Source of the DNA: Schmidtea nova
Taxonomy: Eukaryota
DNA length: 64,000 nucleotides
Reading direction: 5' to 3'
Assembly (NCBI GenBank): GCA_044892505.1
Contig: CM097882.1
Span: forward strand, 465,620,001-465,684,000
Both the position numbers and the translations under genes were made by a program. Below, piece after piece: positions 23,487-64,000 of the stretch; the stretch's first letter is position 1, and every line of letters starts with the position of its first letter. The notes under the pieces were generated by a model. That model did no database searches. It had not been told where the DNA came from and saw only the letters and a program-made list of their open reading frames with translations.

Positions 23487-23499
23487 GGCGACCACGCCG
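23486..23499 (+). promoter_or_regulatory. Primer binding site
   Basis: TGGCGACCACGCCG overlapping the LTR end by 1 nt; cognate tRNA not determined. Confidence 0.8.
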
Positions 23500-24618
23500 A
23501 AAATATTCACACAATGACGACTCGAGGAGAAGGGAAAAAATCTGCAAGAGACTTACTACCAAAACGTGCTCAAGAACTCTTGGATATGGAAATTAGAAGA
23601 TACGACGGCAGATGTACCAAAGAAGCTGAAAAATGGATACATGCAATTGATGATTGGATCGCTAGAAATGACTTAAAGAGGACAGAAGCATTCGATTTTC
23701 TCCTTTGCGACGAAGCGGCTACGCTGTGGACAAATTTCAAAACAGAAAAACAACAGAAAAAGCAGCTAAAGAATGGTTTTCCGAAACATTTACTATTAAA
23801 TTGACTATTTTAGACAAGATTAAAGAACTTGCTGCAATTAGACAAGATGAAAATGAAAGATATGCAACCTTCGAAATCCGGGTATTAAACTTAGTGGATG
23901 AAGTTATTAATTCAGGAATGAGGGTAGAGGAAATTGCCAATGAAATTATAACTGGACGAGTCAGAGACAGAAGATTAAAAGATGCGCTAACAATGAAACC
24001 AACGATGACCGCAGAAGAACGAAATCAACTGGCCAAAATTTACGAAAAAGTGGAATCAAAAGAAAAGACGGAAGAAATTATGGTAATAAAAAAGAGTAGT
24101 TACGCAGAAGCAACAAGGAGAAGGAATCCAGAAACGTTTACAAGAGAAACAAATGGAAGTAATGGCAATATATTAAGAATCCAAGGAAATTACAGAAGAG
24201 AGAATTTACCAGATAATTCTTATAGCAGAAATAACGAAATAAATAATACAGTCGAACGGAATATGCAGAGAAGGACACCAACGGTTTCGCTTAAACACAT
24301 CGCCAAGAGATTATACAATCGATCTAGAGGCCTTCCTGATCCAAGAAACGGCGAATTACAGTCAGGTCAATGTTTTTGCTGTGGAGAATATGGGCATAGA
24401 AGATATGAATGCCCACTAAAAGATAAATGTTTGATATGTGGTAAGGGAGGACATAATTTTCGTGATTGTTATTTATTAAGAAAGAAAGAACAGCAGAACT
24501 ATGAGAACAAGAAAATTATATCTTGTGTGCATGATGAAGAAAACGGAAGAAATTACTCGGATGATGCAGAAACCAGAGAATCAATTAGTGATTATGCAAT
24601 TCATGATGTGGAAACTGA

Positions 24619-24625
24619 AAAAAAC
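24619..24625 (+). promoter_or_regulatory. Putative -1 ribosomal frameshift slippery site A_AAA_AAC
   Basis: Canonical X_XXY_YYZ heptamer in gag frame; the pol (-1) frame opens right after the TGA at 24616-24618 and stays open into the protease. Confidence 0.75.
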
Positions 24626-27600: not shown

Positions 27601-27767
27601 AGGTACTAGTACGACGAGAACCACATAGAAGAAACAAAAATGATATTCAATATGATGGTCCATATAAAATTCTTAGATTTGTGTCAGATCACCAAGTTGA
27701 ATTGCAATATCCAAATACAACGCGACACCGAAAAATCGAATGGTTAAAGAGATGGCATCAATCTTAA
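24619..27767 (+). pseudogene. pol: pol (PR-RT-RNase H-IN) with one stop and one frameshift
   Basis: LWDSGAS, SPWSSP, CVDYRELN, RLPF*LSTAPATFQR, YLDDIL, LDTDAS, VMDVA, TDRGRNF, QSNGLVER, YDGPY. Confidence 0.93.
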
Positions 27768-27776
27768 GAAGGGGAG
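27766..27776 (+). promoter_or_regulatory. Polypurine tract
   Basis: AAGAAGGGGAG immediately before the 3' LTR. Confidence 0.85.
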
Positions 27777-27943
27777 AGTAATGATATTGCAATAAAGGCC
27801 AAAGACCAAATGTGAAGCAGTTCAGAGTATATTGCGTAATTCAATCACTGTGTTAGTTATTGCGCAATATACATAACTATTTAAGAGTGATCACTCTGTG
27901 TTTTTGGTAAATAAATCTTTAGATGGAACCGATTGTTGTAACT
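27777..27943 (+). repeat. 3' LTR
   Basis: See 5' LTR. Confidence 0.95.
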
Positions 27944-28044: not shown

Positions 28045-28845
28045 TCAGTTCTTGTATAGAACAATGTTCTTGTTAGGGTTAGTGACAGGGTTAAAGTTAG
28101 GGTTAGGGTTAGGGTGCATTTGCTCTAATTCAGCAATAATATGCTGAAGAAACTGGGATGGTTTTTTATTTCCCAAAGTTTGGGTTTTGAAATATTTGGT
28201 AAAAACTGCAGCAGTTGTTTCCTTAAAAATCTCTAGGAACACAGTTTTTAATTCCTCATAAGGTTTCTTGAAAGAATGCGAGGAAGTGCGAAGAATCACG
28301 GCTGACAACTTACTAAGTATGTTGGGCGGGATCATGGCAAAATACGACAGTATTTGTCGCGAGATAATGTAACCCCTCTGTCCTCGAGTGCGAGCTCGGT
28401 AGATATTAACCATGTCAGTGGGGAGTTATTTTCGTCTAGAAAATACTGACATAGGTAGGTGGATCTCTGTTTGGATGCTTTTGCGCTAGTGCTGCCTTTC
28501 CTTTGGTCAGCCTGGTCATTTTCCTGGTGGTCAATCTCGGAGTCTGAGGCGCCACTGAGGAGAGGAAAATAACCCTGTATCACGCTATTGTTTTTGTGAG
28601 TTGACAAGAGCTCTTGGTCTGCGAGGCGATGTCCGCTGAAGTATAATTGACAATGTGCACTAAATTGGGTGAGGTTGCGTAAAGTGTCCCTTAAATCCCT
28701 TACAGTAGAGGTAGTAGCAAGAAGGATGAGATAGTTTTTGCCCCCAACGGCAACAAAAAGAGAGAAAATGGTTTCTATTCTAAATGAGGTCCCCGAAGCG
28801 CCGATACCCCCCGTGCGGTCCCATATGGCTGGAGCAATAGATTGT
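28045..28845 (-). pseudogene. Ubiquitin-like domain fused to a gypsy gag N-terminal fragment
   Basis: Open frame 28845-28332: LFVAVGGKNYLILLATTSTVRDLRDTL..CQLYFSGHRLADQELL..YFPLLSGA, then YFLDENNSPLTW; after a frameshift MIPPNILSKL..PYEELK..KKPSQFL; homologous to 46400-47100. Confidence 0.75.
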
Positions 28846-29144
28846 CAAAAAACGGGCATGTATGAGTTACTTTTAAAAATAAAATTTTTAGAAATACTTG
28901 CATGATTTCCAACGGTTACCATTCTATTAAAAGCGACCTTTGAACTGCGATTGCTGCGAGATGAATTTTGCGATGTTTTGAGTATTTTAGTTTGTTTTGA
29001 ATTCAATTTTGATGATGATTGTTTAGAAGAACCCATGGATCGGCTGTTGCTAGATGAAGCATTGTCTGATGAATCATGTTCGTTTGATGTGACTACTGAT
29101 AGTATGACTTAAATCGTTTATGAGAGGTAATCTTTGAATAAAAT

Positions 29145-29790
29145 CCATATTTGAGTATGCATCGGCAGAGTTCGGTGATATTTTAATGAATTCTCGGTAA
29201 TGATTTAGGGCGCTCTGTAAATGGCCTTGTACTTGCAACATATTAGCCGGGTTGGAATGGGAAACGGTAAATTCTGGATAAATCTCCAATGTCTTTTTAT
29301 CAATATTCATTGCCTCTTTTTTGAGAGCTTGTTCCCGTTTAATATTGGCCAAATTGTTAAATGAATCTGCGTGGTTTGGATTCAATTTCAGAGCCATATT
29401 ATAACACTTTCAGCTTTGAACAAATTACCTTTTTCTTTCATTGCGTTGGCCAGATTGCAGAATGCGTCAGGAAAATTAGGTTGTAAGTCGATGATTTTGA
29501 GATAACTGTCAATAGCCTGGTCATAGAGACCCTGTTCGTAATAGACACAAGCAAGATTCTCGTGCAAAATAGGATTATCAGGATCCAAAGTTAATGCTTT
29601 AATGTAAGCTGCAACGGCACGATCGAATATCTTTGCTTCTTTGAAGACATGTCCAAGATTGACATGAGCATTTAAGAAATTAGGCTCGAGATTGACGGCC
29701 TTTTCCAAGTGATGAATTGCGAGCCAAATGTCACCTTGTGTTTGAAAAATGTATGCAGTTGCAAATGCCAGATGTGCATTAGGTTCATTT
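29145..29790 (-). pseudogene. OGT: O-GlcNAc transferase TPR fragment (internal TPRs), frameshifted
   Basis: [73 protein letters not shown] closely track metazoan OGT; no catalytic domain. Confidence 0.92.
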
Positions 29791-29799
29791 ACATTGTCC

Positions 29800-30110
29800 C
29801 TGAATTGGAAAGCCGGTTGATTGCTCCCGAAATTGAATCCGAACGGTTCAGCTGCCACAGGTGGCTGTTGTTGAGCACTACCGGCAAAAGTAGCACTTTA
29901 CATATTATTGGATGGGTTGCTACTGGCTCCGAATGTGAACTGAGAACTCGAAGGAGCACTGAACATATTTAATTGGCTGATGTTGTTCGTTAAAGAAAAA
30001 GGAGTTGCAATTGGATTTGACTATTGGCCGAAATTCATTGTCGAAGAGACCGGCGCTGCGAATAACCCAGATGATAATGATGCGGGTTCGTTTTCTGACA
30101 CCATTTTCGT
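29800..30110 (-). pseudogene. FG-nucleoporin-like (Nup153/Nup1-type) low-complexity fragment
   Basis: In frame: [45 protein letters not shown]; two stops. Confidence 0.65.
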
Positions 30111-31559
30111 GGTTTTATACGACGAATTGATTTGATTTCTCTTTGCCATAAAATTATTAGATAACTGTTGAGCAGTTAAATAGGCAACGTTTTGAGATAA
30201 AAGTAATGGATCATAGTTATATGAATTCATCATGACCATATTTTCTAAATACTTATTGTGCGTCAAAACATTAAAATCCGATGTCATATTAGAGCTTTGA
30301 TTTATATTGATATTTTCATTTGACTTTACATCAAGATTTCCCATCTGATCAGTAATTACATTGATACCATTTTCTACGTTACCAGCCATGTTAATAAAAT
30401 TCAAAACTAATTTGCTTAATAATTTATATTTTTTAAAAAAAAACTAAATTCTAATTTACAAAATATGATTATATAAACAACTGGTTTATATCAAAATAAA
30501 AAGTTGATCACAATAAATGTTTTTTTTTAAACTATAGTCTTTTACTCATTTCTTTTCTTTTCAATACTGTTTTTAGCTACTGAAACAAAAAATAATAAAA
30601 TTAGAAAATAATTGAACATTTATTCGATTTAATAGTGGTTGCTTCTTTGAATAATTGTGCTTCAGAAATTGTTGTGGTGTTTATTGGAAGTTGCTGCTTG
30701 AATTATCGTTCTTCAGAAATTGATGTTGCGTTTACTGAATTTTCTTTTCTTGCTTGATATTCAGTTTCCAAAAAGAGAGCCGTTTTTCGTGATTTAAACA
30801 AAAACTTTTTATAATTCTTTATATATGATTTTATCTTATATATATATTATGATATTTAATTTAATTTACTTTATATATAAATATTTATAATATGAATATG
30901 ACGGAGTCACTACACTCTTCATTCTTTTTTTCAGTTATTTTTTGCTATGCTAGCAATGGCCAAATACTAGTTTTTAGAAATTTGAGTAAATTTGAGAAAA
31001 GAAAATATACTATCCATTCGGAGTTATTTAAAACTGCTTCACAATTTGAACATTGAGAAGGCTTTTCGTTGCAATCAGTATTGATTAAAGTATCCAATTC
31101 ATCTACAGACTTGATTATCAGTTCTTCATAATCTATATCGCTATTATGAGCAATTTCCAACTTTTTCCACACATTCCGACATGCCCGCAGGACAAAATAA
31201 AAACTCCACCATATATAGCAAACTTTTATTGATTTTTTATAACTATTGTCATTATTTTAATCAATCACCTAATATTTACCGTATTATTTTGTTAAAAATC
31301 GATTGTAAAACAAATTGTAAAACAACTAAAGATTTTACTATAATTTATGTGTCAGTAAACTTCCTTAATTTACTATAACAAGTAAGTTTTGGCTAACTGA
31401 TATTCAAATAAGCAATGACCATATTATTTACTTAAATCATCATATAATATACTAAACATGTGTGTTTTCACTAAAATAAAATCATCCATATTAACACATA
31501 AAATAAAAGAAATAGTATTTACGACCCCACCCGCTAAACTTTCACAAGAAACATGCGAT

Positions 31560-34157: not shown

Positions 34158-35216
34158 AGAAAACAGTAATAANNNNNNNNNNNNNNNNNNNNNNNNNNNN
34201 NNNNNNNNNNNNNNNNNNNNNNNNNNNNNNNNNNNNNNNNNNNNNNNNNNNNNNNNNNNNNNNNNNNNNNNNNNNNNNNNNNNNNNNNNNNNNNNNNNNN
34301 NNNNNNNNNNNNNNNNNNAAAGGTCTAACATAACAAAAGTTCAAAACATCACAAGTGCAATAAAACCAATAATAAAGATATAAACCTACAATACTTTCAT
34401 ATAAAATGTAAAATCTTTTCAGCAAATCGAGTCCAATTAAAGATTCAGTTAAAATGAAACCAGTTAAGAACGATACCGAATCAATTCAAAACAAATTTGA
34501 TTTACGACCTTTTTAGATGTTTCACGATTACCAAATGTTTTTCTTGGTAAATGAAATCTTTTTCAAGGTCCCAAATCCGGTAAAGCTGTCGACTTCGCAA
34601 TATTCAAATTTAATTGGCCAGCTTTATAAAGATGTTGTTGCAATCAATAAAGTGTTGATGAAAATCAACTAGAAATTATCTTGCGGTGAAACGATATATA
34701 TCAACAACAAGAAAACTTACTTCCATGACGCATTTCAATCCCTTGAGTTTATGGACAATGAAAATTGGTTTATTAATATATCGATTCAAGGATATAAATT
34801 AGAAGAAGCAGTGTCTCCGATTTGGAAAATCAATAGCGCTAGAATCGCTTAATATATTTTTAATGTATTTTTAATAAATGATGTAATCAATTCTTGAGTT
34901 TTTGAAAATTTTTGAATTTTTGAAAAAGTTTTAGTTTTAAAAGTTTGACCTTAAAAATTATGAATTTGACCTTAATGTGACCTCATTATTTGGCCTCACA
35001 TTGACCTTAAGTTGACCTCATTATTTGTACTTAAATTGACCTTAAAATTAAAAAATAATTTTTTATGACTCATCGCTTGTGTGTGTAAAAAAAATTTTAA
35101 GGGTGGGGGGGTTCGCAAAAAAAAGTACTTCTCCGGGGGTCTACTTGATTTTTATTGGCTATGACTCATCGATTACGTACCATGTCTTTGTCCCAGAGTG
35201 CACACATCTGTCTACT
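33980..35216 (+). repeat. Composite repeat family copy (inverse of 21258-23319)
   Basis: High identity to the reverse complement of 21258-22137; TGACCT array at 34940-35045. Confidence 0.88.
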
Positions 35217-35238: not shown

Positions 35239-35730
35239 TTACAGAATTTTGCAACATGAAAAATTTGATTTGAGGATGGTATGTTGCTTCGATTTAGAAA
35301 GGCAGTCAAGAGCCGCACAAAAACAGCCATCTTCAGAATTTTGCAAATTTTTAAAACATTTTAAAATGTCAGTTTTATCGACTCGACTAAGATTATCACC
35401 CAAAATCATCAAACAAACTAAATACGAATAATTCATCGTTACATGACCAGACATGTAAATCTGGTTTGTGAGATGACAATTACTCGGGAAAAATCCACCT
35501 CGAAATCCCTCTAAACGGCCAGATTGATAATCTAATATTTGCTGCTCATAAATCCAGTCAACTATTTCATTTTTATCTGATTGCGAGATATCATCAATAC
35601 GATTTAACAAATCGAGACCAGATAGAGCAAATTGTAAAATGATAACTCTTGATGTATCATATGATTCAAAAACCGTTGGAATATAACTGACAAACTTTTT
35701 AAAGTACTTGGAAATTAAATCTTGATTCAT
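35239..35730 (-). pseudogene. PGGT1B: Geranylgeranyltransferase type I beta subunit, N-terminal fragment
   Basis: YDTSRVIILQFALSGLDLL, IVDWIY..Q, GFRG, SGHVTMNYSYLVCLMILGDNLSRVDK, LQNSEDGCFCA; homology stops at about 35300. Confidence 0.88.
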
Positions 35731-38426
35731 TTCAATTTTATTGTTAACTTATCTTTTCAATTTAGTTAAATTTCGTATAATTCCACAAACAATTCAATAA
35801 GAATACCGTTCACAAATATTATTATTAATCTAAAATCAAATTGTTACAAAAAATTCAATTTAACAATTAACAATTTTAAACAACACAAAATTTTATATCG
35901 TTAATTTAATTTTATAATACATAAGTTTTTATCCTAAATTTAAGTTTTTAATATCACACATTTTATTTTTCTCTCTTAATTTTTCTTTCAATTTTTCTTT
36001 TAATTTTAATTTTTGTTTTCTTTACGATTTAGATTTATTGTTGTTCCTTAGGAAATTGACTCAAAATTTAAAGTCATTTCCTAAGTTACTAAATCACATA
36101 AGGTCAGGCGGAACAAAGATGACGCTCAGAGTATGATAATCTTGTTCAACAAAACATACAAGGACGTTATTTACAAGGACATAAAGTTGGTGCAGAGAGG
36201 AACCCGTTATGTAGTGAGTTGGAAGAAACGATTTTTAATGGATTTAACACCAACGCTTTTGTCGTTAAAAGATCAGAAATTCAAAGTCTTGTAACCCAGT
36301 TGCCTCTACAGTTTGATATTTTTTTGGATAAATTTAAAACTTTACAACACTGGGTTGATGGGTTTCTATTAAGGCGTGAAATGTCTTTAAGAAGGTCAAT
36401 AACATCATTTAAGTTAGATAATACAAAGGTATTATCATTTAATATCAGCTAATATCAGAAAATAGTGTATTTGTCAGAATTTTTGGAGAAGCGCTATACA
36501 GTTACCTAAGCAAAGAAATTTCAGTAAAAATGGCGAAATACGAGAAAGCTACAAATGAATTGCCAGTAAGTGTTGGCGGAAAACTACGATTTATGGAATC
36601 AATAACCCGAATACTTCTGGAAGAAAAAGTTAAACCGAAAATCTTACAATGTAATCGATTATTAGCCCCATTTTATCTTTTAGCACAAGATTGATGGATA
36701 TCGTTACCAGATTACCGAGGAGTGAAAACGGCAGACAAATTCGAATTGACAAATTTAGAATACTTAATAAATTTTACACCAATAAATAAAATGACACAAA
36801 TGGGTTTATATGCGAGCGAAGACATCGAAGAAGCACAAAAAATTTGTTATTTCCGTCAAAAAGGAATGTGTGATTTCAGAAATGATTGATACGATATTGC
36901 CGAATGGAGAAGAAAAAGTTAATTACGAATACTTGCAAACACCTGACCATTTTAAACGAGCTACTTACAAAACAATGGAAAAGATTTGGAGTAAATTTAT
37001 GTTTTTGGGACAAGCATGTGCAGGTCTAATTGGTATTTATGTAATTGTGGTAACCATAAAGGTAATAATATCACAAGTATTGTCCGCTCACAGGATAGAT
37101 ACAATTTCTGGATGGTCATGAAAAATGATTATTGGCTGTATTCCATTTTTGGCGAGATTCTTCATTACAAGTCATCACTACAAGGAAATGTCAAATGTTC
37201 GGGCGCAATTAAGAAATAATCAAAAAAGTAAAGAATCACTATGCGATCACGAGGATTAAAATAATGGCCATAATAACGAGAGCAATGCCGACAGATCAGA
37301 GCAGAAAATCTTTCGAAGGAGCATAATGAAAAGTAGAATAGAAACGAATCCAGGTTCTTGCTTGAACCAATGCCAAAATTAACCGGAATCGACACTCTTT
37401 CTCGATGGTACACACCGACATACGTACCAACAGCTCTAATATACCCAAGTGAAATATTGAGAGAATTGAAGCCAGTTGATGAGATAAAAGTCGAGTTAGA
37501 AAAGATTGAACCATCAAGTGCCGAAATTGAAATAAAGAACATGCTTGGGTTACCATGTAGTTACACATTAATGATAATAGAGTTAGGAGGAAAATAACCT
37601 AGAGTAGCCATATATTTTAATGAACGAAAAGTGAAAGCGTTATTGGACCCAGGTTCGAGTCACAGCATAGTATAGGAAAGTTTTTTTACGAAACATGGAA
37701 AAGCAAAAATAAAACCAACAACAAAAGTTATTAAATCAATGACGCATAACGTATTAAATAGTATTGGGAAATTGAAAGTCAAATTGAATATCGGAAATCA
37801 GGAAGTAACTCATTGGGTGTCAGTATTGAGAAAAAGACCTGGCATGGATTGGCATGGACATCATAGAACAATTACAAGGAATCTCACTTGACTTAAAGAC
37901 AGGAAAATTAATAAAAAGGCAGATGGGTGAAGTAGTACATGAAGTAGTAGAAGTCATTTTAAATCAAACATTGGAAGTATCACCAAAAAGTGAAGTAATA
38001 TACTACGCCAATGTAGAGAATGTTTCCGAAGACGAGTGCATATTTGAACCAAATCAAAAATTAATAGAAAATTACGACGTATCTATGTGTGACGAAATAG
38101 TGAAAATTAAAGACAAAATCGTGCCAGTAAGAATAGCTAATTGTAGCACAAAATCGATTCAGATGAAACCCAAAACAGTTGGGAAAACTGACGAAAATAA
38201 AAGAGGAAGAAGCACAAAAGCTACCTAGAAATATCAAGATCTATAAAGAACCTCAAGTAACAAGTGACGATTTAACGGATGTACAAAAACAAGAATTTGC
38301 TGCATATAGAAAAGGTATAAAAAAGCATTTGCGAAACATGAGTACGATATAGGACTCACTCAGATAATTGAACATGAAATACCATTGCTTGATGAAACCC
38401 CGATAAAAATACGACCGTATAGATTC

Positions 38427-38875
38427 TACTTCTCCCATCTGATCAAAGTTTTCTTGCGGAACTGGTATAGGATATGTGTCCTTTCTTGGTTTAATTTCCG
38501 ATAATCAACATAAAATTGTAATTCACCGTCCTTTTTCATTACTGCTATTGATGATAGGAATGGTGATGAACTATCTCTTATTATTTTAAATTTTTTCATT
38601 GCTTTAATTTGCCGATCGCTTTCCTCTTGATGTATATATGAAATTCTATACTATAGAATTTCATATATACATCAAGAGGAAAGCGATCGGCAAATTAAAG
38701 CAATGAAAAAATTTAAAATAATAAGAGATAGTTCATCACCATTCCTATCATCAATAGCAGTAATGAAAAAGGACGGTGAATTACAATTTTATGTTGATTA
38801 TCGGAAATAAAACCAAGAAAGGACACATATCCTATACCAGTTCCGCAAGAAAACTTTGATCAGATGGGAGAAGTA
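38427..38875. repeat. 449-bp near-perfect palindrome inside RT
   Basis: 224-bp arms centred on 38651, one mismatch seen. Confidence 0.95.
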
Positions 38876-41800
38876 CAATTCTTTACAGTAATTGATCTTA
38901 ACAAAGGATATAACCAATTTAAAATAAAAAAGGAGACAGGAGAAAAATTGCATTTTCAGATTGTAAAGGACTATATGAGTTTAATGTGCTAGCATTTGGT
39001 CTAACCGAAGCACCTGCTACGTTCCAGAGAGGTATAAATTTTGTTTTGCGTGATATACCGCATCCATTACTCTATAGCGATAATATTTTCAAATAGTTTT
39101 CAGGAGCACTTGAAAGATGTGGAAATAGAGTTTAAACTACTAATAGAAGCTAATCTCAAAATAAAACCTTCAAAATGTGAATGGGGAAAATTAGAAGTTG
39201 TTTATGTAGGAAATATTATTTCACGACGAGGGTCCAGAAAATGTAGAAAAGATTAAAAAATACCCAATGCCCAAAAATACGGATCAAGTCAGATAATTTC
39301 TGGAATTAGCTAGTTATTATAGAAAATTCATTAAAAATTTCTCGCATATCGCACAACCTTTAAATATATTGTTGAAAAAGCAGACCAAATTTAAATGGGC
39401 AACGACTCAACAAGAAGCATTTAATAAATTAAAAGAGAGTCTTATTTAACAACCAATATTAAAATGTCCAAACTTCAAAAACCCTTCATACTGATGACGG
39501 ATGCAAGCAATTTCGCATTATGAGCAGTTCTGGGACAGCAAGCAGAAGGCGAGATAGATCATGTAATCGCTTATGCCAGTCTTTCAATAAAACACAATGA
39601 AAAGAATTATTCCACTATTGAAAAAGAAACTTTAGCATTAGTATATGAGATAACTAATTTTTGACAATATTTGGTTGGGAGAAAGTTTATTGTATTTACG
39701 GATCATAACCCATTACAATGGCTAATGAAGCGTAGAGATTCAGCAAGTAAGTTAATCAGAGGGTCAATTGCGTTACAAGAATACGACTTTGAAATTAAGT
39801 ACCGGCCAGGGAAGTCGAACGCAAATGCGGATGCGATGTCGAGAATTCCTGAGGAAAATATTTTTAAAAATGAAATAAATTATGAAAATACCATATTTAT
39901 GGCAATTAAAACTACAAATAATATGAAAGAATTAGAGAAGGACCAAGAAAATGATGTTGGCGTAAATCAATTGCGTAAAAATGCCGTCAAAATAAAAAGG
40001 AAAAGTGACTGGAAGCACATTGCTCCAGAAAAATATAAATATGTTATCCACGATGGCTTGTTAAAATGTGTTAAAAATGAAAATTTATTAATTGTAGTAC
40101 CAACACAACGTCAGACAGTATTACTGTTGTTATATCATGATGGGAAATCACGAGGACATTTAACTGCTCGAAAACACTGTCAAGATTAAAACAGAAATAA
40201 TATTTGGATACGATGGAACACGATGTCAGACAGTAGTGTCTTACTTGTTAAGTGTGTCTAACCAGGAAGAAAAATAAAGGTTCCTCTGAAACCTATGCCC
40301 GTGCCACTAGCACTAATGGAAATGACAGCAATGGACATTGTCGATCCACTACCAGAAACAACTAATGTCAATAAATATATTATTGTTTTTTGTGACTATT
40401 TAACAAAATAGCCAAAAGCATATGCTATGCAAAATCAAAAAAGCGGAATCTGTGGCAAAAATATTTGTAGAAAACCTCATATTTCGGTACGGAGCACCAA
40501 GGAATTTGCTAACAGATCAAGGAACAGACTTTCAAAGCGAATTATATAAATCTATCACCGAATTATTTGGAATTCTAAAACTTAATACATCACCATATCA
40601 CACACAAACAGACGGTTTAGTCGAAAAATTCAATGGAACACTGATCAACATGATATCGTCGTATGTAAACAGAAAACAAAACGTTTAGGATTTGTTCATT
40701 ATACCATGTTTGTTTGCATATGGAAATGCAGTGAATGAAAGCACCGATGAAACACCCTTTTATCTTATGTACTTACGACGAAACAAAATGCCGATTGACT
40801 TAAATTTTCAACCGCCAATATCAAAAAAAAATGGACGTATCCGATTATAAAGTGGTAATGCAGGAAAGACTGCAATCAGTATGACCTTAAGCTGAACTTA
40901 AAATAAGGCATAACCAAGAAGCATATAAAGAATGCTACGACAAACGGGCACATGTACATGATATAAAGTTGGAGACTTGGTATACATAAATGAATCAGAG
41001 GCAGCGAAAGGACTGTCAACAAAGCTACTGCGACCATTTAAAGAGCCATATTTAGTTTGTGATGCAACAGAAACGAATTTAAAATTGCGCCCACAAAATA
41101 CTAAAAAAAAGCTGGAACGATTGCCATTCATGTAAATCGATGTATGAAAGTTACGGTGGAAGAACAGTATCCCCTGAGGTCAAAACCGAATAACGGTGAA
41201 AAAGAAAAAGTAATTTAATAAAAATTTACAAAAACACCACTCAATTAAAATTACTTGAGTAAAACGTTGCTGATTACAACAGTAATGATGATCAATGTTT
41301 TGTGTACCCATTATTAAAAAAGATCGATGTGTATTCAACATGTACCCAAATATTATGGATCTATCATTGCGAGAAATAGAAACTATTTCGAATACCACTA
41401 AAATTAAACTGTAACAAGAATATCCATGTCGCCCGTGAATTATCAATGGATTATAAATACCCTTGGGTAGTAACACAATTATAGTTTAAAGATAACCTGA
41501 CGAAACTCCATGATCTAATATGTGTCAATATATGGACAAAAAGGCTGCAAAATCGTGTATCAATTGAACCAGTATTCCATGAAATTAATGTACATTGGAA
41601 ATCTCATGAATCCCAGCAAGTAAAAACAGTCTTTCAAAATTATGCTATCGATACACTGAACAGCAGAAAACCATTTATAAATTATGTTAATTTAAAATTA
41701 TTTCAGATGTATAACATTCAAATAAAATATTTTGTAAAGTTTTTGTATGAAAGAGGAACTAAGAGTAACAATCAGTGGGTTCTAATCCATTCCAGTCAAC

Positions 41801-42722
41801 ACATGATACACTTGATCAATAAGACAAACAGAGTTATCTCTAATGTGTATAATCAGACGATAAAATGTTACCCGTCAAATGTACCCAAATAAAAGGGCTG
41901 TTCTATACTATTGTGGAAAAATACAAGCAATATTAGAAAAACAAAATGAATGACAGGTCTTATCTTTCCGACAACTACGATCAAAATCGTATTCTAAAAT
42001 TGTGCTAATAAAAATCAAATATTATCGACGAGCCAGATACTCTAATCTTTGGCAATTAACCTTAGTTGAGGACAAATTTGTGTTGGTATCATATACGGAA
42101 ATGGACAATTATTCACAGAAATTAAATCAATCAACTCGAATCACAAATAATAAAACTATATCATCCTCATTTACGGAAAATAAAATTCTACGTAACGTTG
42201 TTCATAAAAATTATCATTATAACAATATTTATCATTATTCTCATATCTTTTATCATCTACGAAATTCGAAAAACTGATAGACAGACTACGAATCAATCCG
42301 AGACTCGGATACCTTGGATCGATTATGACGAGACATTTGTATAGTGAGATACAATTATTTGCGTGCAATTACGGTATATTAATTGCGTAGCATCTAGTAA
42401 CATTTTCTTGTATCAATGTTTCATGTGAATCTGCTCTCTTCGAAATGGGAAAATTGGGAAATTGATTTAATTGGCTAATACTAAGAGTGAGGGGGTAGAA
42501 AAAAGGTCTAAAAAATTAAAAAGAGGGTATATAAGACAAACTTAAAAATCATAAAACTTAAAACAAATTTTAAAGAATTAAGAAAATTTTAAATTAAATC
42601 GGTAATTTTATATTTTTTTATTTATACCGCTACCGACTAAGACAGTATCTTTTAGGTACTCCGTCTTAGTCCTAGCGTCAAAATTAAATTAAATCAAATT
42701 TTAATTATAAACATTTAGAAAA

Positions 42723-43855
42723 ATGGAACAGCTACAATGGGCCAGGGAAACTTGCGGCAGTTACCTAAAGATGATGAAAAATCATGCCGGCCAAAGAAAA
42801 TTCCGGATGACCAACAACTTACAAATCCCAAATTACCTACGGTTGAATGATAGAAAATGAAAGTTCAATTATTCAACATCAACAGAATATCAAAATTCCA
42901 AATAACAAATGAATTAAAACTATCAAAAAAGGAAGAATACCCTATCCATGTAATCAGGGGTACGGTAGAAAAGCTAGATGAAAATGGACAAATATAGTGG
43001 GAGATCAAAAAACATTCTTCAAGCAAAATTAAGGATCCAGCAATTGGGAAAATATTACGAGTAGCAAACGAGGATGCCACAATTGTAGTGGAAACTAGAA
43101 TAAAAAACGAAATTGATGACGTACCCAGCAAGGTCCAATGTAGAAAGAAAATCATGAACTCTTAAAAATAACAAAGGAAATGTTGAAGAGAAAATTATCG
43201 TTTATTCGGAAGGAAATGGACATAGAAAAAATTCGCAGTAGGTTATTGTTCATTGATGTCGAAAATGGGAGCACTGATACATGAAAGATCATCCCCTTGG
43301 CGGTGGCCATTATGATCTATCATGGGGAAATTGTGAAAAATGTCTTCTTGACTCCTAGATGAAGACTCAAACATTTTAACTCAAACATCCATGGGATAAC
43401 GGAGGTGGCCAGCCGAAACGAAAATGACAAGTATATAGAAATGAAGGAGATTTAAAAACTGGCAATCGAAAAAATAATAGAAGGAGACGATTTACATGCA
43501 GAATTGCAATTCTTAGCAATATGGTTCAACCATCTTTTTGGCATTCAGGATCTAGCCACAGCTCAAGTTTTGCAATTGAAAGGAGTCATAAAAAGAGAAG
43601 TAACCATCAATGGGCAATGGTTCAAATTATCAATAGTATGCGACATAAAAATGCGAAAAGGAAAACATTCCGCATTGGAAGATACGGAATCAATTCGGAG
43701 AATTTACTTGGCTTTAGCAAGTCAATGGCAGGATGATGTGGAAAATGAGGAGACAGCCAGCAAAAGAAAATGTTCATTAGAAGATTACAGGAAGAGAAAA
43801 GCTCCAACAACCAGTGAGTTTATGAATGAACCAAAAGATAAAAGGAAATCTCTGT
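42723..43855 (+). pseudogene. Accessory ORF with DEDDh exonuclease domain (decayed)
   Basis: Frame from 43201: LLFIDVE (ExoI), VFLTPR*..HGIT, IIEGDDLHAEL, GIQDLA, GKHSALEDTESIRRIY (ExoIII); N-terminus NNLQIPNY resembles NQICIPND in ORF 53854-55953. Confidence 0.8.
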
Positions 43856-46742
43856 GCCGTTCGTCTGCGGATAATATGCAGTCGAACGCAGTCGTTTGAT
43901 GCCAAGCTGTTCGGATAAAGAGGTAAAAAGCTGTGATTCAAATTGCGCTCCTCTGTCGCTAATAATTTGTCTGGGAATGCCATATCGTGAAACCCATTCT
44001 GAAATGAAAGATTCAGCGACAATATTTGCTGAGACAGAACGTAGAGGAACAGCTTTACACCATCTTGTCTTCCTGTCTATAATTGTTAAAAGATACGAAA
44101 AACCATTGTTTGACCGACAAGATCAACGTGAACGGCATCAAATTAATTGCCTGTTGGAAAGTGCATGTGCGGTGGTTTAACGTGTCGAGTAATTTTGTCT
44201 GATTGGCATTTCAAACACTGACTATCTCGTCTCATAAAGGGCCAAACGACTTGGTTTCTTAGCAGCTGATAAGTGGCGGTCGAGCCAGGGTGACCTAAGT
44301 CGTGAACTGCACGGAATGCCTGTTTTCGAAGCTCGAATCCAAGAATAGGTCTAAGAGTTCCCGAAAGTGAAGAGTCTAAATCAATGCGGTCTACGTTTGA
44401 TTTATGGGGTTGAAAATATTGTAGATCAGCTTCGGTTGGTTTATTCTCGCAGAGTGGAACTAGTAAACAGGGGTTCCAAGGAGATAGCCTTGGCACTACG
44501 TTAGAGAAAATCAGCTAAAATGTTCTCTTTACCCGCTATGTGTCTGATGTCACTGGTGAACTCGGTAATGAAAGAAATTTGACGTAACTGCCTGGGAGAG
44601 TTATCCTTCATAGTTGTTAAATGAACCAACGGCTTGTGATCAGTGTAAACTGTAGTATATCTACCTCCGAGCAAATTTTTGAAATGTTTAATCGACAGAA
44701 ATATGGCTAAAAGTTCCCGAATGAACGCGGAATATTTGGTTTGAGTTTCGGTTAACTTCTTAGAAAAGAATTCACGAGGTCGAACTATACCATCTTGCAC
44801 CTGTGTTAACACAGCGCTTACTGCGACGTCGGACGCATCCGTGGTTAGACTGAAAGGCAGAGAATACTTTGGGTAAGCCAAAGTCTGAATTGATTCAAGT
44901 GCTTTTTTAGCTTCGATTTCTCTGTCCATTTTATAATATATCGCTTTGATCCCGAACTGTGCTAAGTCAAAGGAGCCAGAATATCAGATATCCTAGGTTT
45001 GAACCTGTGGCAATAATTGACTACGCCTAAAAAGCTGTGAAGCTGTGTGACAGTTTCCAGTTTAGAAAAATTTCTGATGGAATTTAAACGTTCAGTTTGT
45101 GGAGCTATTCCATCGGCGGATAAAGTGTGTCCCAGAAATTTTACACTTGATTGAAAGAATTGACATTTGGAATGATTTATCTTGAGTTGATGTTGCTCTA
45201 AGATTTTAACGAGTTTAGATAGATTCTGTTTATGTGTTTCGGCATCAGGCGATGCGACTAGGATGTCGTTGACGTAGGCTACTACATAATCTAGCCCGGA
45301 TAATATGTGATCGATATGTCGCTGGAATGTTTGTGCAGCGTTCCGTAAACCAAAAGGCATTCGCAGGAATTTGAAGAGACCTGTAGCAGTGATGACAGCT
45401 GTTTTTTGCATATCAGATGGAGCGACAGGAATTTGGTGGTATGCCTTCGTCAGATCGATCTTAGAAAATATTTTGTTACCTGTGAATCTGGCTAACGAAT
45501 CCTTTATAAGAGGCATTGAATATGAGTCGTGCTGTGTGACGGTATTTAAACGACGGTAGTCGCCACATATCCCGAAAGAAGAGTCTTTCTTAGGGACGAA
45601 ATGGATCGGAGAGGCCCAAGGTGAAGAAGATCTTTGGATCACTCCTGCTTGTAACAAATTATCATATTCTGTCTTCAGAAATGTCAAGTTTGCTCCGGAT
45701 ATCGGGCACACTCTCTCTATCTGAGTGGCGGTGAATTCAGAGTAAGGATTTGATGATAGAACCTTTGGTCTAAAGATCTTGTTGTATGAGTGAAGTTATC
45801 ATCGAAAATTCGATTAATGTTGAGTTTGTTAACAAAGTTCGTGAATAGATCGATAGAGAATGTATTGCATTCAGCAGTTTGATTAGAAGCGTCATTTAAA
45901 GACGTGGAATTAATATTGGGATCGATGACGGACAGTGAGCGTTTGTTGCAATCGATGATGATGTTAAAATTTTCAAAAAAGTCGATGCTCAGATCGATTC
46001 CCATTTCTGTAATTACACCCGATCTGACAAATGTGTGCGGAAACTCCTAACCTCTGATGATAATAACATATCCATGGAGTTTTATTACGTGTGTGGTCAC
46101 GCGACTGTGATCTCGGTCGCCTTCGGTCCGTTGATGTAGATCTTGCCTCAAGCTTCTGAACTTTTCTAGTGAGATTTTTGATTGCCGATATAAGAGGATT
46201 AAAAGAATGATCCGTAGAATTTTTAGTTTTCGTGGGTGTTGTTACTGAAATTTGGTTGCAGAAACCTGTATTTGGTTCTCGAGAAACCTCGGCTATTTTA
46301 TCAGCCATATTGGCGATATCGGCGAGTGAAGTCGAGTTGGAAACTGCTAAGATGGCTTGTGTTTGTTGAGGCAAGTCAGAAAGAAAAAAGCGACAAAGAA
46401 TAGCGTCATCTTGAGTGATGCCTTGCTGTAGCGATTCGAGGTTGTCTATGGCTTGCTTCAGGAATTCGGATGGTCGTTAGGAACTTAGGTGTTGAGTCTT
46501 GAAATATTTACAAAATATTTCTGCTTTTAGTTCCCTGAAGTTATTGATTATGGCATTTTTGAGGGAAGTAAAAGGATCAACTTCGGCAAAAAGGTTTGGT
46601 AAGAGATGCGCGAGTTAAGAAAGGAGTTCGATGGGGAGAAACGAGACAAGTTGGTCGAACTTTTGCTGTGAAGTCGCGATGTTTCTGGCGTGGAAGGATC
46701 GTTCAAAAATAAATAACCATGCGTTCGGTGATTCGTTTACAT

Positions 46743-47171
46743 CTAAAAAAATGGCTTGATGTTTAGGGTTGTAAAGATGTTGATACTCGTACTGTCTGCC
46801 GATGAAGTGAAAATGTGAGGATTTGGGGAATCAGGTGATAGGGGTGATAAGGTGGTGATGAGATCACTCTCATTCATGCCTCCACGTAATCTTAATGTCA
46901 CGTGTACAACTACTCCCGCCGGTAATACCTTGGCTAATGGTCCCTCATCGTTGGCTACGCTAAAACCTATGTGTGAGCAATAGAAGGTGTTTAATTTCAA
47001 GTGCAAAATGGAGCAAATGAAGCATTCTAAATCGTGCAAGGTTAGAGAAAGTGGAAACGTGCAAAATAAGTTGCGTGAGAAGTCTTGCATTAGTATAGTA
47101 GCCTTGGCGAGGACAGGAAAATAACGAGGCTCTTTCAGTAACACAGAAGGAGGTGGTGAAAGGACACGCAA
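46743..47171 (-). CDS. Ubiquitin-like domain ending LRLRGG fused to gag N-terminus
   Basis: About 74-aa Ub-length segment ending VVVHVTLRLRGG, then MNESDL...IKPFF; one extra T in the T7 run restores PFFLDVNESPNAW of gag. Confidence 0.8.
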   Translation of the reverse strand: MRVLSPPPSVLLKEPRYFPVLAKATILMQDFSRNLFCTFPLSLTLHDLECFICSILHLKLNTFYCSHIGFSVANDEGPLAKVLPAGVVVHVTLRLRGGMNESDLITTLSPLSPDSPNPHIFTSSADSTSINIFTTLNIKPFF

Positions 47172-47254
47172 AAGGAGGGGGAAATGTGGTGATAATTATT
47201 TTTTTAAAAATATAAATATAGAATTTTTTTAATATAAATAGATAATATAAATCA

Positions 47255-47273
47255 GATCCTGCTACTGACACCA
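47255..47273 (-). promoter_or_regulatory. Putative primer binding site (tRNA-Leu-like)
   Basis: TGGTGTCAGTAGCAGGATC one base after ...ACCACA; resembles the common TGGTGTCAGAAGTGGGAT PBS. Confidence 0.65.
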
Positions 47274-47274
47274 T

Positions 47275-47447
47275 TGTGGTATTTGCGTGGTTCGCCTCCA
47301 TTGCTAATTTTGTTTTTGTTATACGTCAATGCATTTGTTTGCCCCCGCAGGAAACAGGCATCAAGATTTCGAATTGCCGTCATAGCTTGTGGGTGAATTG
47401 CAAACAGCATTAAAGCCGTATTCTTTTTGTTAAACGTAATTGTAACA
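47275..47447 (-). repeat. Putative 5' LTR
   Basis: TGTTACA...ATACCACA bracket upstream of the PBS; no second LTR in window to confirm. Confidence 0.4.
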
Positions 47448-47496
47448 TTTACGTTAACCATCATGTTATTGTTTGCATTGATCCTTTCCTCGTTAT

Positions 47497-47707
47497 TTCG
47501 ACCGTGCATCATTAGAGAGTATATTAATCGCCTAACAATTGGACATTGTGCTTGTCTAAATCGTTTTGTTTGATAACGACCAGCAGACTGGGGAATTATT
47601 TTTGCATATTTTCCACTATAATTAATGCAATCTGCCATTGACAGATCGACAGCGCGAACATCATCAGTGCTCCATTTAATGAAAAGTTTAAAGTCAGGCA
47701 TATTCAC
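47497..47707 (-). pseudogene. RPS5: 40S ribosomal protein S5 (uS7) N-terminal fragment
   Basis: [47 protein letters not shown]; diverges after GRNN; substitutions at conserved positions. Confidence 0.92.
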
Positions 47708-47924
47708 AGTTTAACACAGAACACAAAATTATTTATATAAATAAATTCAACAATGCAAAAGCTATATTTTAAAATACAACAAAATTAAAACAAGCGTTTT
47801 TTATCTTTTCAGTTTTTTATACAATTTCTTTTTTATATAATAAAATATATATTCAATATACTCTTAATATATATTTAATTTATATTTAATATAAATATTA
47901 TATTTATTTATATATTAATTATAT

Positions 47925-49615
47925 CACCACAATGTCCTCCCAATGCTCCATCGTGGTATTGTAATAATAACGACTCTCTATACTTTTTTGGCACTAGTAT
48001 TACATTATATCTCGTTTCCACGTATTTAATTAAACCTTCCTCCAAGATAAATTTATCTTTATGTTTCTCCTAATATTTTTGAATCTCGCTTGGTATGGCT
48101 TTTGCTTCGTTGGCTTGTCTGATCATGTTGATCTCGTCATCACTTTTCTGCGCCTCTACCAAGTCAGTCAACGTATTTGCTTCTCTCGTTAACATAAAAA
48201 TTGTTCCTTCTAATCTTTCTTCCTTTACGTCATCTGCTTCCGGTTCTTGTTCCATGCGTGATAGATCGTCTGCGGTACCATTGGCTTTTCCTTTACGATG
48301 TACAATCTCAATATTATATGGCTGTAATATCAATGCCCATCTTAATTATTTCGATGCTTCATCTCTATGTTTTAACAACCATTGCAGTGGTCTATGATCG
48401 GTATAGAAAATTACCTTTATGCCCTATAGGTAATGGCTAAACTTCTCTACTACAAATAAAAGTGCTTCTAGTTCTATCACCGTATAACTTTTTTCGTGTG
48501 GCTTTAATCCACGACTAGCGTATGCTACCGCGTACTCATTGCCAATTTCATCTTTCTGTCTTAATACTGCACCTATACCTCTTGCACATGCATTAGTCAT
48601 TACCATAAATTGCCTTTTAAAATCTGGAAACCGTAAAATTGGTGGTTTACATAATGCCTCTTTCAGCTTATCAAACGCTTGCTGCTGATCCTCTCCCCAT
48701 AAAAAATTTAACTCCTTTCTTTTCTACCGTAGTTAAAGTAAAAGCGATCGCAGAAAAATTTCAAATAAATTTACTATAATATCCCGTAAACCCTAAAAAT
48801 CTCTAAATTTGTTTCTCATTCACTGGTTGTTGGAAATTCTTTACTTTATCCGTGTTAGCCGGATCTGGTCTTACGCAATCGTGTGATATTACATGCCCTA
48901 CGCAAATCACTTCCGACTCTGCCAACTTGCATTTGCTTTATTTTACTTTTAAATTTGCCATGATTAATCTTTTAAAAATATCCTCAAAATGTTCTTAGTG
49001 CTTATCTAAATCTTCCGAGAAGATGATAATGTCGTCTATATACACCATTGCATGATGTGCATCCATCAGCATGATATTCATAGCCCTCTGAAAAGTTGGA
49101 AGTGTTCCTTTTAGTCCAAACGGCATCACTACATATTCGAAATGGTCACTACTTGTTGAAAATCCAGTCATCGAAATTGAGTCTTCGCTCATGTTTATTT
49201 GATAAAACCCCTTCTGTGCATCCATCACAGTAAACAATTTTTCATTTTATTGTATATTTAATCTAACAAAGGTAGCGGGTGATTATGACTTACAGTCTAC
49301 TCATTTAATTTCCTATAGTTGTTACATGACCTAACTGAATCATCTCTCTTAGCTTCAACCACCAAAGGTGAGGAATATGGAGATTTACTTGGACTGATTA
49401 TATTATACTTTTGCATTAATTTAATTTGTTTATCTACGAACCCTTGTATACTTTTAGGTATTCTATATGGGCGAATCTTTATTGGTTTAATTTCTGTTAA
49501 TTTAATCTCATGTTCTAAGCTATTAACTTGTCCTAGGTCATATTCGTGTTTTGCAAAAACTTAGTCATATTTTCGTAACAATTGATTAACCCTAATATTC
49601 TCTTTTCTAGTTAAA
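47925..49615 (-). pseudogene. pol: Gypsy pol fragment (RT, RH, start of IN), related to the env-class elements
   Basis: VFAKHEYDLG, PIKIRPY, MPFGLKGTLPTFQR, YIDDIII, MTNACARG, HRKGKANG, YHDGALGGH; many disablements. Confidence 0.85.
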
Positions 49616-49805: not shown

Positions 49806-52560
49806 TAATAAACCCCAGAGTTTGACCAGGTTCTCGTCTGACACACATTCCCGACTGCGCTCTTTGTTGTTGGTATCTATGGCCGAGTGTCTTCCACGAA
49901 GCAATCACAAATCAACATATCTTGTGGGATCAAAACGTGTGAGTCCGGGTCCAACTAATCTTATAAATAAAAGCGAAGATACAGTTGTTGTCTTCAATGA
50001 AGCTCATGACGGGGTGATGATAAGATTCATCTGTAAAAACCCTCGCTCAGCTTCACTTGAAGAAATTGGGATTGTACTGGGGGCAATTTTCAAAGGAAAA
50101 AGTTTATCAGGAACACTTTTTTCGGTGATATATTCACGAAATCCACGAATCATTATTCTTTCGTTTAACTATAATCTTGTTGACAAGTTCCTTATTTCTG
50201 CTTCGCCAAACGTCAAGTGCGTATCAATATTGTTGGGCCAATGTTTTAGATCAAGCACTCGAGCCGAGTATGCCAAACTAGCATCTTCACTGGACAGCAA
50301 TCTTTGTTCTATTGATTCTCTTAGCTTTTTGAAACGCTTTCACATCAATTGGTGGATCATTTTTACTTTCTTTTTTGTGAAGTGAAACTCCTCTGAAAAA
50401 GTTATTATCTGCAGCAGTGGTCGCAATTTTATAATAAGGGCCTGGAATGATTTGTCGTTCTTCAAAAACCTGTATAAGAGCCTTGATCTTTTAATCTGCT
50501 TTGTAAAGGTTCATGTCGCGCTTTTGCAAATCTAAACTTAACTCTGACAGCTCTTGTAGGGCATCGCATATCAATCCGAGGTCTAATACGAATTTAGTAG
50601 AAGTAATCTTCCGCTGTAAACCTTCGTATGTGCATTGATCTTTTTTGTCTCAGGTTGGATAATGTTTTGTTTCGTCAAAATGCTTAACCAAAACTTCGTA
50701 ATCTTCCCAAACTGCTAAAACTAAACGGAAACTGGATACCACCCATATCGTGCTCAACATCCTCCCAATTTTTAACAACTCAGTTTGTAACAAATTAGCA
50801 CATATTTGCAATTCTCTTGAATTTTTTGGCAAAGGACACACAGTTTATCAATGAATGCTTTCAATCGGTTGATCCCCGAAACTTGTTTTATGGTATCATC
50901 AACGGAGAGTTCCAGTCGGTGATTTGTACAATGCCAAACCAGAACAGATGGAAACTTTTCTTTCAGCAATTTCTTGACTCCAGTTTTGCACCCCAACATC
51001 ACAACTGCTCCATCACATGCAAGATAAATCAAATTTCTTTTAAGAAATTCTTCTGTTATCCCATAGGAATGAAGGCAGTTTAGTAATAAATCAAAAATTC
51101 CCGTTGTGGTTACACTTTCGAGTTCTACCAAATCCAAGAATAAATTCACTGGTGAGTTCATTCCACTGTCCGCAAGACAAACACGAATGTACACAATTAA
51201 AGTAGATTTCTGGCTAGGCGTAGTTGATTCATCGATAATCAATGAAATTTTATTGTCCCACCTTATTATTTCTTTGATCAATTTTATTTTCATTTCAGAA
51301 CTTATGTGATTCACTAAATTGATACATGCATTGGTTGAATGGACTATATGGATCACCTCAATTCCATTCAGTTCTTGCAAATCAATTTCAGATTCAAAAT
51401 TATGAAACGATTTTTTTTCTTTGGCCACTTTATATGCCGTACGAAAAATCTTTGCAGTTACGACTTTTTCAGGAGATAATGCCTTTAAAAACAGGTTCTC
51501 GATAGGTGCCGTATCGGCTTCGGCTAGTATCTTAAGTGCAGCTTTATGTGTCGCAGTTTCCTTATGATCGAACAATTTTTTCCGTAATGACATAAGCTGA
51601 TGTTTTCAATTAATATTGAAGTAGGTTATTTGATTGTTAGACCATTCTTTAGATATCTTCATTCAAATCTTTGCCTCGACTCTGAGGTTACCAACTTTTC
51701 GGCACGGAAAACAACCAAAGTTTTTATCATGGATAGATAGCCAGTTATACTTTGTACAGAACTCGTTTTTTTGATCCAAAGTCCAGCATGCATGCCAGTC
51801 AGCATCATCAAGTTGTAATTGCTCAATAGCATCAGATGATCCAAGAACGCTATTTGAATGCATTATTTCCAATGGGTCCGTTATGGTTTCTTCTGTTACA
51901 CCAACTTCTGCCCTTATTTCTTCGCACAATCTGTTTTTTTATTTACTGGAAATTCGTTTGATTGCGAAGCAGAAAAGAAATCAAAAATCTTCATTTTCAA
52001 GTGAGATAAATTAATTATATACCAAGTAATCAATTATAAATTTTAATTTTGTAAGTTTTAATTTTTTAACTTGTTTTTAATCTTCTATGCATAACGTTTA
52101 AAAACACGTGGCCGGAAATGAGCTATCAATTAATGACGTCTTATTAAGAGTGTGCTTATAAATTGTGGCTGTCTGGATTCGTTTTGGTGGCAGGTGCTCG
52201 TTTCTATGTGGAAATATGAAATAAATGTACGCCACATAGGAACGGCATGCAAGCACTCTGCACAGCGTTAATAACAAACATTACCTTATATGAGTTATAC
52301 ATAATTGTGCACTAATAGGCACAATGCGAATATAATTATTATATTACGTTAAAACATTTTTGCTATTCGTATTTAAGTGCTAATTTATAGATAAAAATGT
52401 AAAATAAAACATTCATATTAATAGTATAATAAAAAATAATTATAATTTAAATCACTTAAAAGTTACTATTAATTATATTTTATTTTTTATAAAATGAAAA
52501 AGGTGCCGGTACGCCGTACCGGCGCATACCGTCACAAAAAAAAAAAAAACAATAGCCGGA
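49806..52560 (-). mobile_element. hAT transposon (ZNF862-like transposase), decayed
   Basis: IIDESTT, LACDGAVVMLG, WHCTNHRLEL, EGFSQMNLI, FIRLVGP; terminal block aaggtgccggtacgccgtaccggc..cacaaaaaaa at about 52495-52560. Confidence 0.88.
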
Positions 52561-55953: not shown

Positions 55954-56415
55954 CTTTGTTTTTGATTGATATCGAATTGATTTCTTGAGATATTGATTTG
56001 AGAGATGATTAATAGGGTTTTGACAGTTTAACAGAGATATAATTGAATATATTGAGATATATGGGTAATTGTCGTAACGATTCGATTGGTTTATAGAATT
56101 GACGAGATTGATTGGGTATTTTGTATGGAGATGATTGGTAGGGTTTTCTGATTGTTTGTTGTGATAGTTTAAAAAGAGATGATTGTATTTATTGAGATTT
56201 TTGAATGGTTGTCACAATGATTTGATTGATGTGTAGAATTCACGAGATTGATTGGGTTTTCGGAGTTTGTTGGAACTTGCTTTGTTTTGCTCGTGTAATC
56301 TTTTCTAAAAATAAAGGATAAAGTTTTTTGTTTAAGACGTATTGTCGGTTTAACCTTATACGCTATATAAATACGAATATATATGATTTTAATTATTATT
56401 ACTGACAAAAACTTA

Positions 56416-63920: not shown

Positions 63921-64000
63921 AACATTTCAACATCTCTTTTATTTCTATTTCTAATTCAAATACTCTCGTTACATTTTGTCTCTTTACCATCATTGGTAAT

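Follow-up and report, generated by a model that had tools for sequence, protein, structure and literature searches.

A Schmidtea nova locus that very probably holds a single decayed Burro-type GAG-ENV-POL Ty3/gypsy copy of a family other than its neighbour's

A 64,000-nucleotide stretch of the planarian Schmidtea nova (GenBank assembly GCA_044892505.1, contig CM097882.1, positions 465,620,001 to 465,684,000 of the forward strand; hereafter the window, with positions counted from its first letter) contains the remnant of a viral-type glycoprotein gene lying directly ahead of a retrotransposon pol. The window, eukaryotic DNA that is rich in AT and interrupted by N gaps, is a dense nest of transposon remnants, and the locus raises the question of whether this remnant, element A (36449-43855, plus strand), was ever one element, and how it is related to its neighbour, element B (53854-63926, minus strand). 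We find that A is very probably a single, dead copy, truncated at both its 5' and 3' ends, of a Burro-type GAG-ENV-POL Ty3/gypsy element, and that its family is not that of B.

A first-pass annotation of the window had proposed that both elements carry, in one order, a glycoprotein (G), protease (PR), reverse transcriptase (RT), RNase H (RH) and integrase (IN), a hydrophobic extension and a DEDDh exonuclease open reading frame (ORF). This order is borne out. In tblastn searches the proteins of B, which has four long ORFs on the minus strand, match A colinearly on the plus strand: G at 36449-37157 (39% and 28%), pol at 37848-41182 (29-47% on plus-strand pieces) and the accessory ORF at 43153-43770 (24%). 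The frameshift-aware alignment of A with B that had been suggested as a check gives scores of 362 for G, 276 for the PR region, 1529 for pol and 160 for the accessory ORF, against 34-47 for shuffled sequences (three per segment; 39-43 for the PR region). A transmembrane (TM) segment at 42210-42260 and a match of the last domain to ISG20L2 complete the series. The PR-RT-RH-IN order that Pfam finds in B, with a colinear remnant in A, assigns both to Ty3/gypsy (Metaviridae).

What remains of G in A (36449-37157) is the C-terminal part, including the TM segment, of a Monjiviricetes/gB-type (class III) fusion glycoprotein. It is broken, but both pieces match Pfam PF24664 (E 5.5e-14 and 4.6e-12), and the frameshift-aware alignment to B gives 36% identity over 235 codons. 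The proposed homology to B's glycoprotein is therefore real, although less of it survives than was thought: the match starts at 36449 rather than 36190, at position 360 of the 596-position profile, so that about 40% of G is left and not half. G homology upstream of 36449 was rejected because the roughly 500 nt there (35950-36448) score as shuffled sequence does, at 29-36 against shuffled maxima of 35-41 (7 of 9 queries). Upstream in A, gag, the ubiquitin-like (Ubl) and Bcl-2-like region and the N-terminal part of G are all missing.

The junction between G and pol is preserved. The codon at 37158-37160 is a sense codon in A but TAA in B, as the first reading of the letters had noted. The cytoplasmic tail and a linker from G to the protease occupy 37158-37597, which is continuous with the database protein P0005 apart from insertions of 38 and 28 codons and contains no long terminal repeat (LTR) or foreign block. 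An aspartic protease remnant, a PR-RT spacer at the site of Burro's dUTPase-like domain and the start of RT follow at 37598-38422 (tblastn to P0005, residues 1084-1362); the spacer, of about 130 residues, has no Pfam dUTPase match at E ≤ 0.05. RT, RNase H and integrase then lie in Ty3/gypsy order at 38652-41182, interrupted by 12 stops and 11 frameshifts relative to B. The GPY/F motif of integrase is intact in B and one residue off in A. With 19 stops and 16 frameshifts over 1,587 aligned codons in total, the continuity of the G-pol frame in A can be read only via its relatives. Within the heavily decayed RT, 38423-38650 (minus strand) is an inverted duplicate of 38652-38879 (99%, 2 mismatches); this fold-back (38423-38879), with 228-nt arms and a 1-nt loop, is possibly far younger than the decay of A, or else an amplification or assembly artefact.

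Those relatives argue for a single element. Positions 36467-42269 of A align with the single ORF of P0005 over 1,671 codons at 39% identity, the largest insertion being the inverted arm; the alignment used a low gap-extension cost without a shuffle control, and its bins at 18-27% are near noise. The search for relatives covered proteins of 1078-3075 residues (2,223 candidates). In all seven matches G is followed by PR in one ORF, and in three of them (P0001, P0005 and P0006) by RT-RH-IN as well. On the gag side, a Retrotrans_gag match (E 0.023) is present in P0007 and a CCHC knuckle precedes the Ubl-like region of P0002; the N terminus of P0005 is recognized by eye as gag/CCHC, and P0004 has a Bcl-2-like region. 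A distant G also precedes RT in five further pol matches bearing the PF24664 label, which lie outside the clade. Two pairs, P0002/P0022 and P0007/P0025, seemingly represent splits between PR and RT, on contigs of 21,743 and 27,725 (linkage inferred). P0001-P0004, P0006, P0007, P0022 and P0025 contain several tandem or dispersed aspartic-protease-like domains, some with ankyrin repeats after integrase. P0005, P0031 and its contig L002, and a further contig, L001, were deposited as bacterial metagenome-assembled sequences (Flavobacteriaceae and Turicibacter among them) and are probably eukaryotic contamination.

Phylogenies were built from hand-picked subsets of 126 database proteins, 47 in the RH tree and 32 in the RT and IN trees, none of them a named reference element. 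The final RT tree used frameshift-aware rows; raw tblastn pieces had given A a spurious branch of 4.2. In all three trees A is sister to P0031 (RT 99/93, IN 99/96, RH 90/74), and in the RH tree A and B group with the G-pol relatives as a 15-row clade (99/92).

Several observations weigh against the single-element account. The RT phylogeny that had been called for supplies A with a well-supported sister but places B beyond the starred clade (97/92) to which A belongs. The IN clade with both A and B is unstarred (91/95, 92/96), and the G tree does not resolve, with zero starred branches. Four of the seven relatives end after PR, so the single ORF is not universal, and because only long proteins were searched, the search itself selects fused forms. 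The permissive settings of the P0005 alignment count here too. Finally, neither gag, LTR nor primer binding site was found for A or B within the 64-kb window (no LTR candidate and no repeat between the flanks), so that the GAG-ENV-POL layout of A is only inferred; no tRNA gene was found either. Gag is deleted in A and, for B, falls past the window edge.

The same pattern might be produced by separate nested insertions, in which a mononegaviral glycoprotein endogenized on its own, a pol from an ordinary gypsy element and a retrocopied host exonuclease came to lie in this order by chance. Elements are densely nested in the window, and A adjoins at its 3' end, and is truncated there by, an unrelated gypsy element (43856-46476, minus strand; gag-pol with a truncated integrase) that lies outside the clade in the RH tree and is long-branched and unplaced in the RT tree. 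Moreover, the G tree cannot link A's G to any given pol, and the DEDDh family is linked to pol on no database contig. We nevertheless regard such a coincidence as very improbable, given that B independently shows the same order and strand, that A's accessory ORF has both domains of B's ORF family, and that the tail of A matches the tail of P0031, the protein that RT, RH and IN all identify as its sister. This common sister, together with the end-to-end alignment to the one ORF of P0005, argues that A is not a nested patchwork, and the objection that the first-pass annotation had itself raised against its reading does not hold.

Whether A and B represent one family or two was addressed by their divergence. 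In keeping with the low DNA-level similarity reported at first, the sole blastn match between them is 369 nt at 66%. The 816 aligned pol codons are identical at 59.8/70.5/45.6% of first, second and third positions; the corresponding figures are 49.8/66.4/43.8% for G, 41.8/59.7/37.3% for the PR region and 42.7/55.8/35.9% for the last ORF. Thus position 2 exceeds position 1 and position 1 exceeds position 3 in all four homologous segments, a pattern that neutral decay of one family would not produce. At fourfold sites, where base composition alone predicts about 29% identity, the values are 39.5% in pol (114 sites), 25.9% in the PR region (27) and 23.1% in the last ORF (13); the 57.7% found in G (26 sites), higher than in pol, is a point on the other side. 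A is closer to P0031 and its contig (66% protein identity in IN, 53% in pol over 921 codons and 67% at the DNA level over 2,172 nt) than to B (45-46% protein identity, 46% in pol over 816 codons). Judged from these sequences, A and B are two families sharing one gene order, as had been proposed, and they diverged under purifying selection before A decayed.

That A instead belongs to B's own family, as an older copy in a more advanced state of decay, we find scarcely credible. A is indeed heavily decayed, and of 188 columns invariant in 11 relatives it keeps just 77.7%, but B is similar at 80.5% of 236 and the measure discriminates poorly. The graded codon-position identity in all four segments and the greater proximity of A to P0031 and its contig both contradict this explanation, as does the retention in A of DEDDh catalytic residues that have been substituted in B and in the two relatives nearest to it.

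Element B supplies the parts that A has lost. Its most upstream ORF (62757-63926, minus strand) encodes a Ubl-like and Bcl-2-like region ending in a signal-like stretch, with a frame break before the mature G; the Ubl-like region matches P0002, P0006 and P0007, and the Bcl-2-like region matches PF00452 at E 2.2e-6 and 28.6 bits, below the 31.4 cut-off. A full gB-type glycoprotein follows at 60982-62829 (minus strand; PF24664, E 1.5e-82), terminated by TAA and identical to the ENV of Smed_errantivirus_3 at about 175 of 246 residues (~71%, counted by eye), a closeness to an S. mediterranea element that by itself would point to a dugesiid planarian as the probable host. PR-RT-RH-IN and a tail with a signal, an FN3-like (fibronectin type III-like) domain, a stalk and a TM segment form 1,521 open codons at 56416-60981 (minus strand), as assigned from Pfam order, hydropathy and a structural model. 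The accessory ORF at 53854-55950 (minus strand) encodes a beta-helix domain, a DEDDh-fold pseudo-nuclease and an acidic tail by its model, with no Pfam match. Pfam detects no BIR/RING (B-IAP), MATH or ankyrin domain in the ORFs of B, both window copies being incomplete, and neither is assigned here to Burro1 proper. A tandem duplication of about 140 nt lies at 56017-56260, between B's pol and accessory ORF; the published maps of Burro also mark tandem repeats (PMC6431247).

The TAA that separates G from pol in B could be a programmed read-through stop that sets the ratio of Env to Pol, in which case the families would differ in pol expression while A remained what we take it to be. The stop lies in frame directly after the TM segment, B's ORFs are otherwise open for 615 and 1,521 codons, and the apparent PR/RT splits among the relatives suggest that pol expression may be under regulation in this clade. 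We think this unlikely. The position is a sense codon in all eight relatives and in A, and B is not pristine: a further break precedes its mature G, at a point where all seven relatives are in frame. Both observations favour a lesion, and the TAA and the frame break are most likely damage sustained after insertion, as far as comparison of the sequences can tell.

Downstream of integrase, A retains the remnant of a membrane protein (41255-42344, plus strand, ending in a stop at 42342-42344), recognized by hydropathy and by the tail of P0031. It comprises a weaker signal-like stretch (41255-41305), a probable FN3/Ig-like region (41311-41691), assigned by way of B's tail, and the TM segment. The hydrophobic extension that had been noted is thus real, but it does not align with the tail of B (score 42 against 39-41 for shuffles). 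Of 11 tails tried, one aligns with that of A, namely the tail of P0031 (E 2e-8), whose contig continues after IN with the same layout. A hydrophobic segment follows IN in 10 of 12 clade relatives, and a signal-like stretch and a TM segment are both present in 6 of the 12, as they are in B. Three weak lines point to an FN3/Ig-like ectodomain in B's tail: an Atlas fn3 score of 0.87 (a lead only), a best Foldseek E value of 9.4e-4, and a structural match with Z 8.6 to FN3 and 8.1 to other Ig-like folds. The model behind the last two is of low confidence (pLDDT 58.7, pTM 0.30), which counts against the assignment, and Pfam fn3 has no match in B's ORFs or in the relatives.

The accessory ORF follows the tail. 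In A its likely start is near 42723, and its N-terminal domain (42762-43108, plus strand), which is broken, is recovered by the family profile in two frames (E 5e-5 and 8e-8) as a double-stranded beta-helix of the cupin/2-oxoglutarate-oxygenase-like fold. The model of the corresponding domain of B matches prolyl hydroxylase 2jij (Z 11.7, root-mean-square deviation 3.5, 158 aligned residues); Atlas gave no usable match for this domain. An AlkB domain is reported for orchid gypsy elements. Here an AlkB-type or 2-oxoglutarate-Fe(II) dioxygenase activity was rejected: the HxD/E...H iron triad is absent, one His (39/45) and one Glu/Asp (40/45) being conserved with no acid two residues past the His.

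The second domain of A's ORF (43228-43855, plus strand, the domain itself at 43228-43740) is an ISG20/REX4-like DEDDh exonuclease with three in-frame stops, and the ORF is cut at about 43855. It matches ISG20L2 (7yw5) at E 3.5e-5 and keeps all five catalytic positions. B's accessory model (pLDDT 84.5) matches ISG20 (Z 17.7, root-mean-square deviation 2.6, 161 aligned residues), and four of the five catalytic positions are replaced, with the same four replacements in its two closest matches; by its residues, B's domain is a lineage-fixed pseudo-nuclease. A search with B's ORF found 65 representatives. Of the 51 that span the five catalytic columns in full, 29 keep the complete set, and RNase_T (PF00929) matches 19 of the 38 family members tested; Pfam has no match in either DEDDh ORF of the window. 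The profile search that sought to connect relatives of this ORF to elements gave three matches with no shared contig, a scan of genome contigs for G found none among 62 candidates, and a scan for IN near these relatives was positive in 2 of 17, neither of which extends as far as the ORF. The accessory ORF is linked to a Burro-type element in A and B only. That families about 45% identical in pol keep both the tail layout and the two-domain ORF nevertheless suggests that these are old, selected parts of the clade.

The domain order of the intact relatives, together with general membrane-protein topology, suggests how an intact element would work. One long RNA would encode a polyprotein of the order Gag-Ubl-(Bcl-2)-signal-G-TM-PR-RT-RH-IN-signal-FN3-like-TM. 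The first internal signal would thread G into the lumen of the endoplasmic reticulum, and the chain would re-enter the cytosol by way of the TM segment of G, so that Gag and PR-RT-RH-IN stay cytosolic but tethered to the membrane at the site of capsid budding; the second signal would export a small surface protein of beta-sandwich fold. The pieces would then be cut apart by signal peptidase and by the protease of the element, so that capsid, fusogen and enzymes are coupled. The class III fusogen is predicted to let the enveloped particle pass between cells, and the Bcl-2-like domain to protect the host cell from death. As for the separate ORF downstream, its product most likely trims the element RNA or shields it against host RNA defences, acting as an enzyme in A's lineage and as a non-catalytic binder in B's. 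A itself is incapable of any of these steps.

The remainder of the window contains further mobile and host-derived sequence. A third, shorter remnant of the same clade (RT-RH; 47932-49614, minus strand) falls inside the 99/92 clade of the RH tree, and no G was found upstream of it; near it, 50772-51605 is what we take to be a hAT-like transposase, with no Pfam match. Related gypsy remnants at 28045-28844 and 45973-47195 (both minus strand) each have a ubiquitin-like ORF directly upstream of gag, the former matching PF00240 at E 0.004 and the latter ending in LRLRGG; their gag pieces match each other (E 5e-10). A near-intact ordinary gypsy element lacking env occupies 23320-27943 (plus strand), and its 167-nt terminal repeats are 99% identical, which indicates a recent insertion. 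Fragments of a prenyltransferase beta subunit (35239-35748, minus strand; Pfam), of what is presumably a tetratricopeptide-repeat protein resembling O-GlcNAc transferase (29074-30443, minus strand) and of a piece that we assume to be RPS5-like (47252-47710, minus strand) are probably retrocopies of host genes. The window also contains an ISXO2-like transposase region with a 99% identical tandem duplication of 1 kb (18890-20881), a 900-nt inverted repeat pair (21257-22137 and 34319-35216, 93%) and an RT fragment at 3220-4062 that we would label Penelope-like from its look.

The env-before-pol layout, whose novelty the first-pass annotation had implied, is already published, as is the presence of several divergent families of this kind in one planarian genome. 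In planarian Burro elements a mononegavirus-like env lies in frame between gag and pol and is accompanied by domains resembling Ubi2/SUMO and BCL2; in Dugesia japonica, decaying fragments with stops and frameshifts are reported (PMC6431247). GAG-ENV-POL elements are known in Nematoda, Bryozoa and Platyhelminthes, with six families and a median ENV identity of 33.5% in S. mediterranea (PMC13524379). A is thus one more decayed family in a published class and on its own matters little. By contrast, we did not find the post-integrase membrane protein or the beta-helix-DEDDh ORF described for such elements, although Burro papers, Repbase entries or figure labels may cover both. Tentatively, and at somewhat less than even odds, they may form an undescribed, conserved kit of the Burro clade of complex enveloped flatworm viruses: a second, FN3-like type I surface protein that is released from the end of the Gag-Env-Pol polyprotein and serves in attachment or as a receptor decoy, and a downstream cupin-fold/ISG20-like nuclease directed against host RNA defence that exists as an enzyme and as a lineage-fixed pseudo-enzyme. 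If undescribed, the tail protein and the accessory ORF would offer handles on cell attachment and on piRNA and RNA interference evasion by Burro-type elements in planarians. Effects of Burro1 on planarian stem cells and regeneration are reported (cited in PMC13465017).

Among the closest known systems is Burro/GYPSM1, the giant gypsy of Dugesiidae, which shares the mononegavirus-like env ahead of PR-RT-RH-IN. Its Ubl/SUMO-like and BCL2-like domains ahead of env are seen in B only (the latter below cut-off), that region being absent in A, and its ankyrin repeats recur in the clade relatives P0025 and P0033. Unlike Burro, the parts present within the window have no BIR, MATH or ankyrin domain, and the account of Burro (PMC6431247, section 7) does not mention a post-integrase signal-FN3-TM protein or a DEDDh ORF. 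Burro reaches 25-30 kb with LTRs, whereas A and B are both truncated, by deletion or by the window edge. The flatworm GAG-ENV-POL errantiviruses likewise have an HSV/gB-type ENV directly upstream of POL, and the 36% identity of A and B in G falls within the 27-64% ENV identity among families of one genome; they differ from A, a truncated fossil, in having intact copies (1-215 per genome), and the words exonuclease, DEDD, Bcl and fibronectin are absent from the main text of that source (PMC13524379). Troyka, which has no env and no GPY/F motif (PMC12440569), was rejected because both are present here. Vesta and Juno, LTR elements of bdelloid rotifers, also place a DnaQ-like exonuclease in a separate ORF downstream of pol, but there an RNase D-like DEDDy ORF3 replaces env, whereas here an ISG20-like DEDDh domain stands behind a beta-helix and env is kept upstream (PMC5408684). 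Anakin, a mosquito BEL/Pao element with a chuvirus-like glycoprotein, is a further case in which an LTR retrotransposon has acquired a class III glycoprotein related to this one; B differs from Anakin in being Ty3/gypsy by its GPY/F motif and its neighbours in pol.

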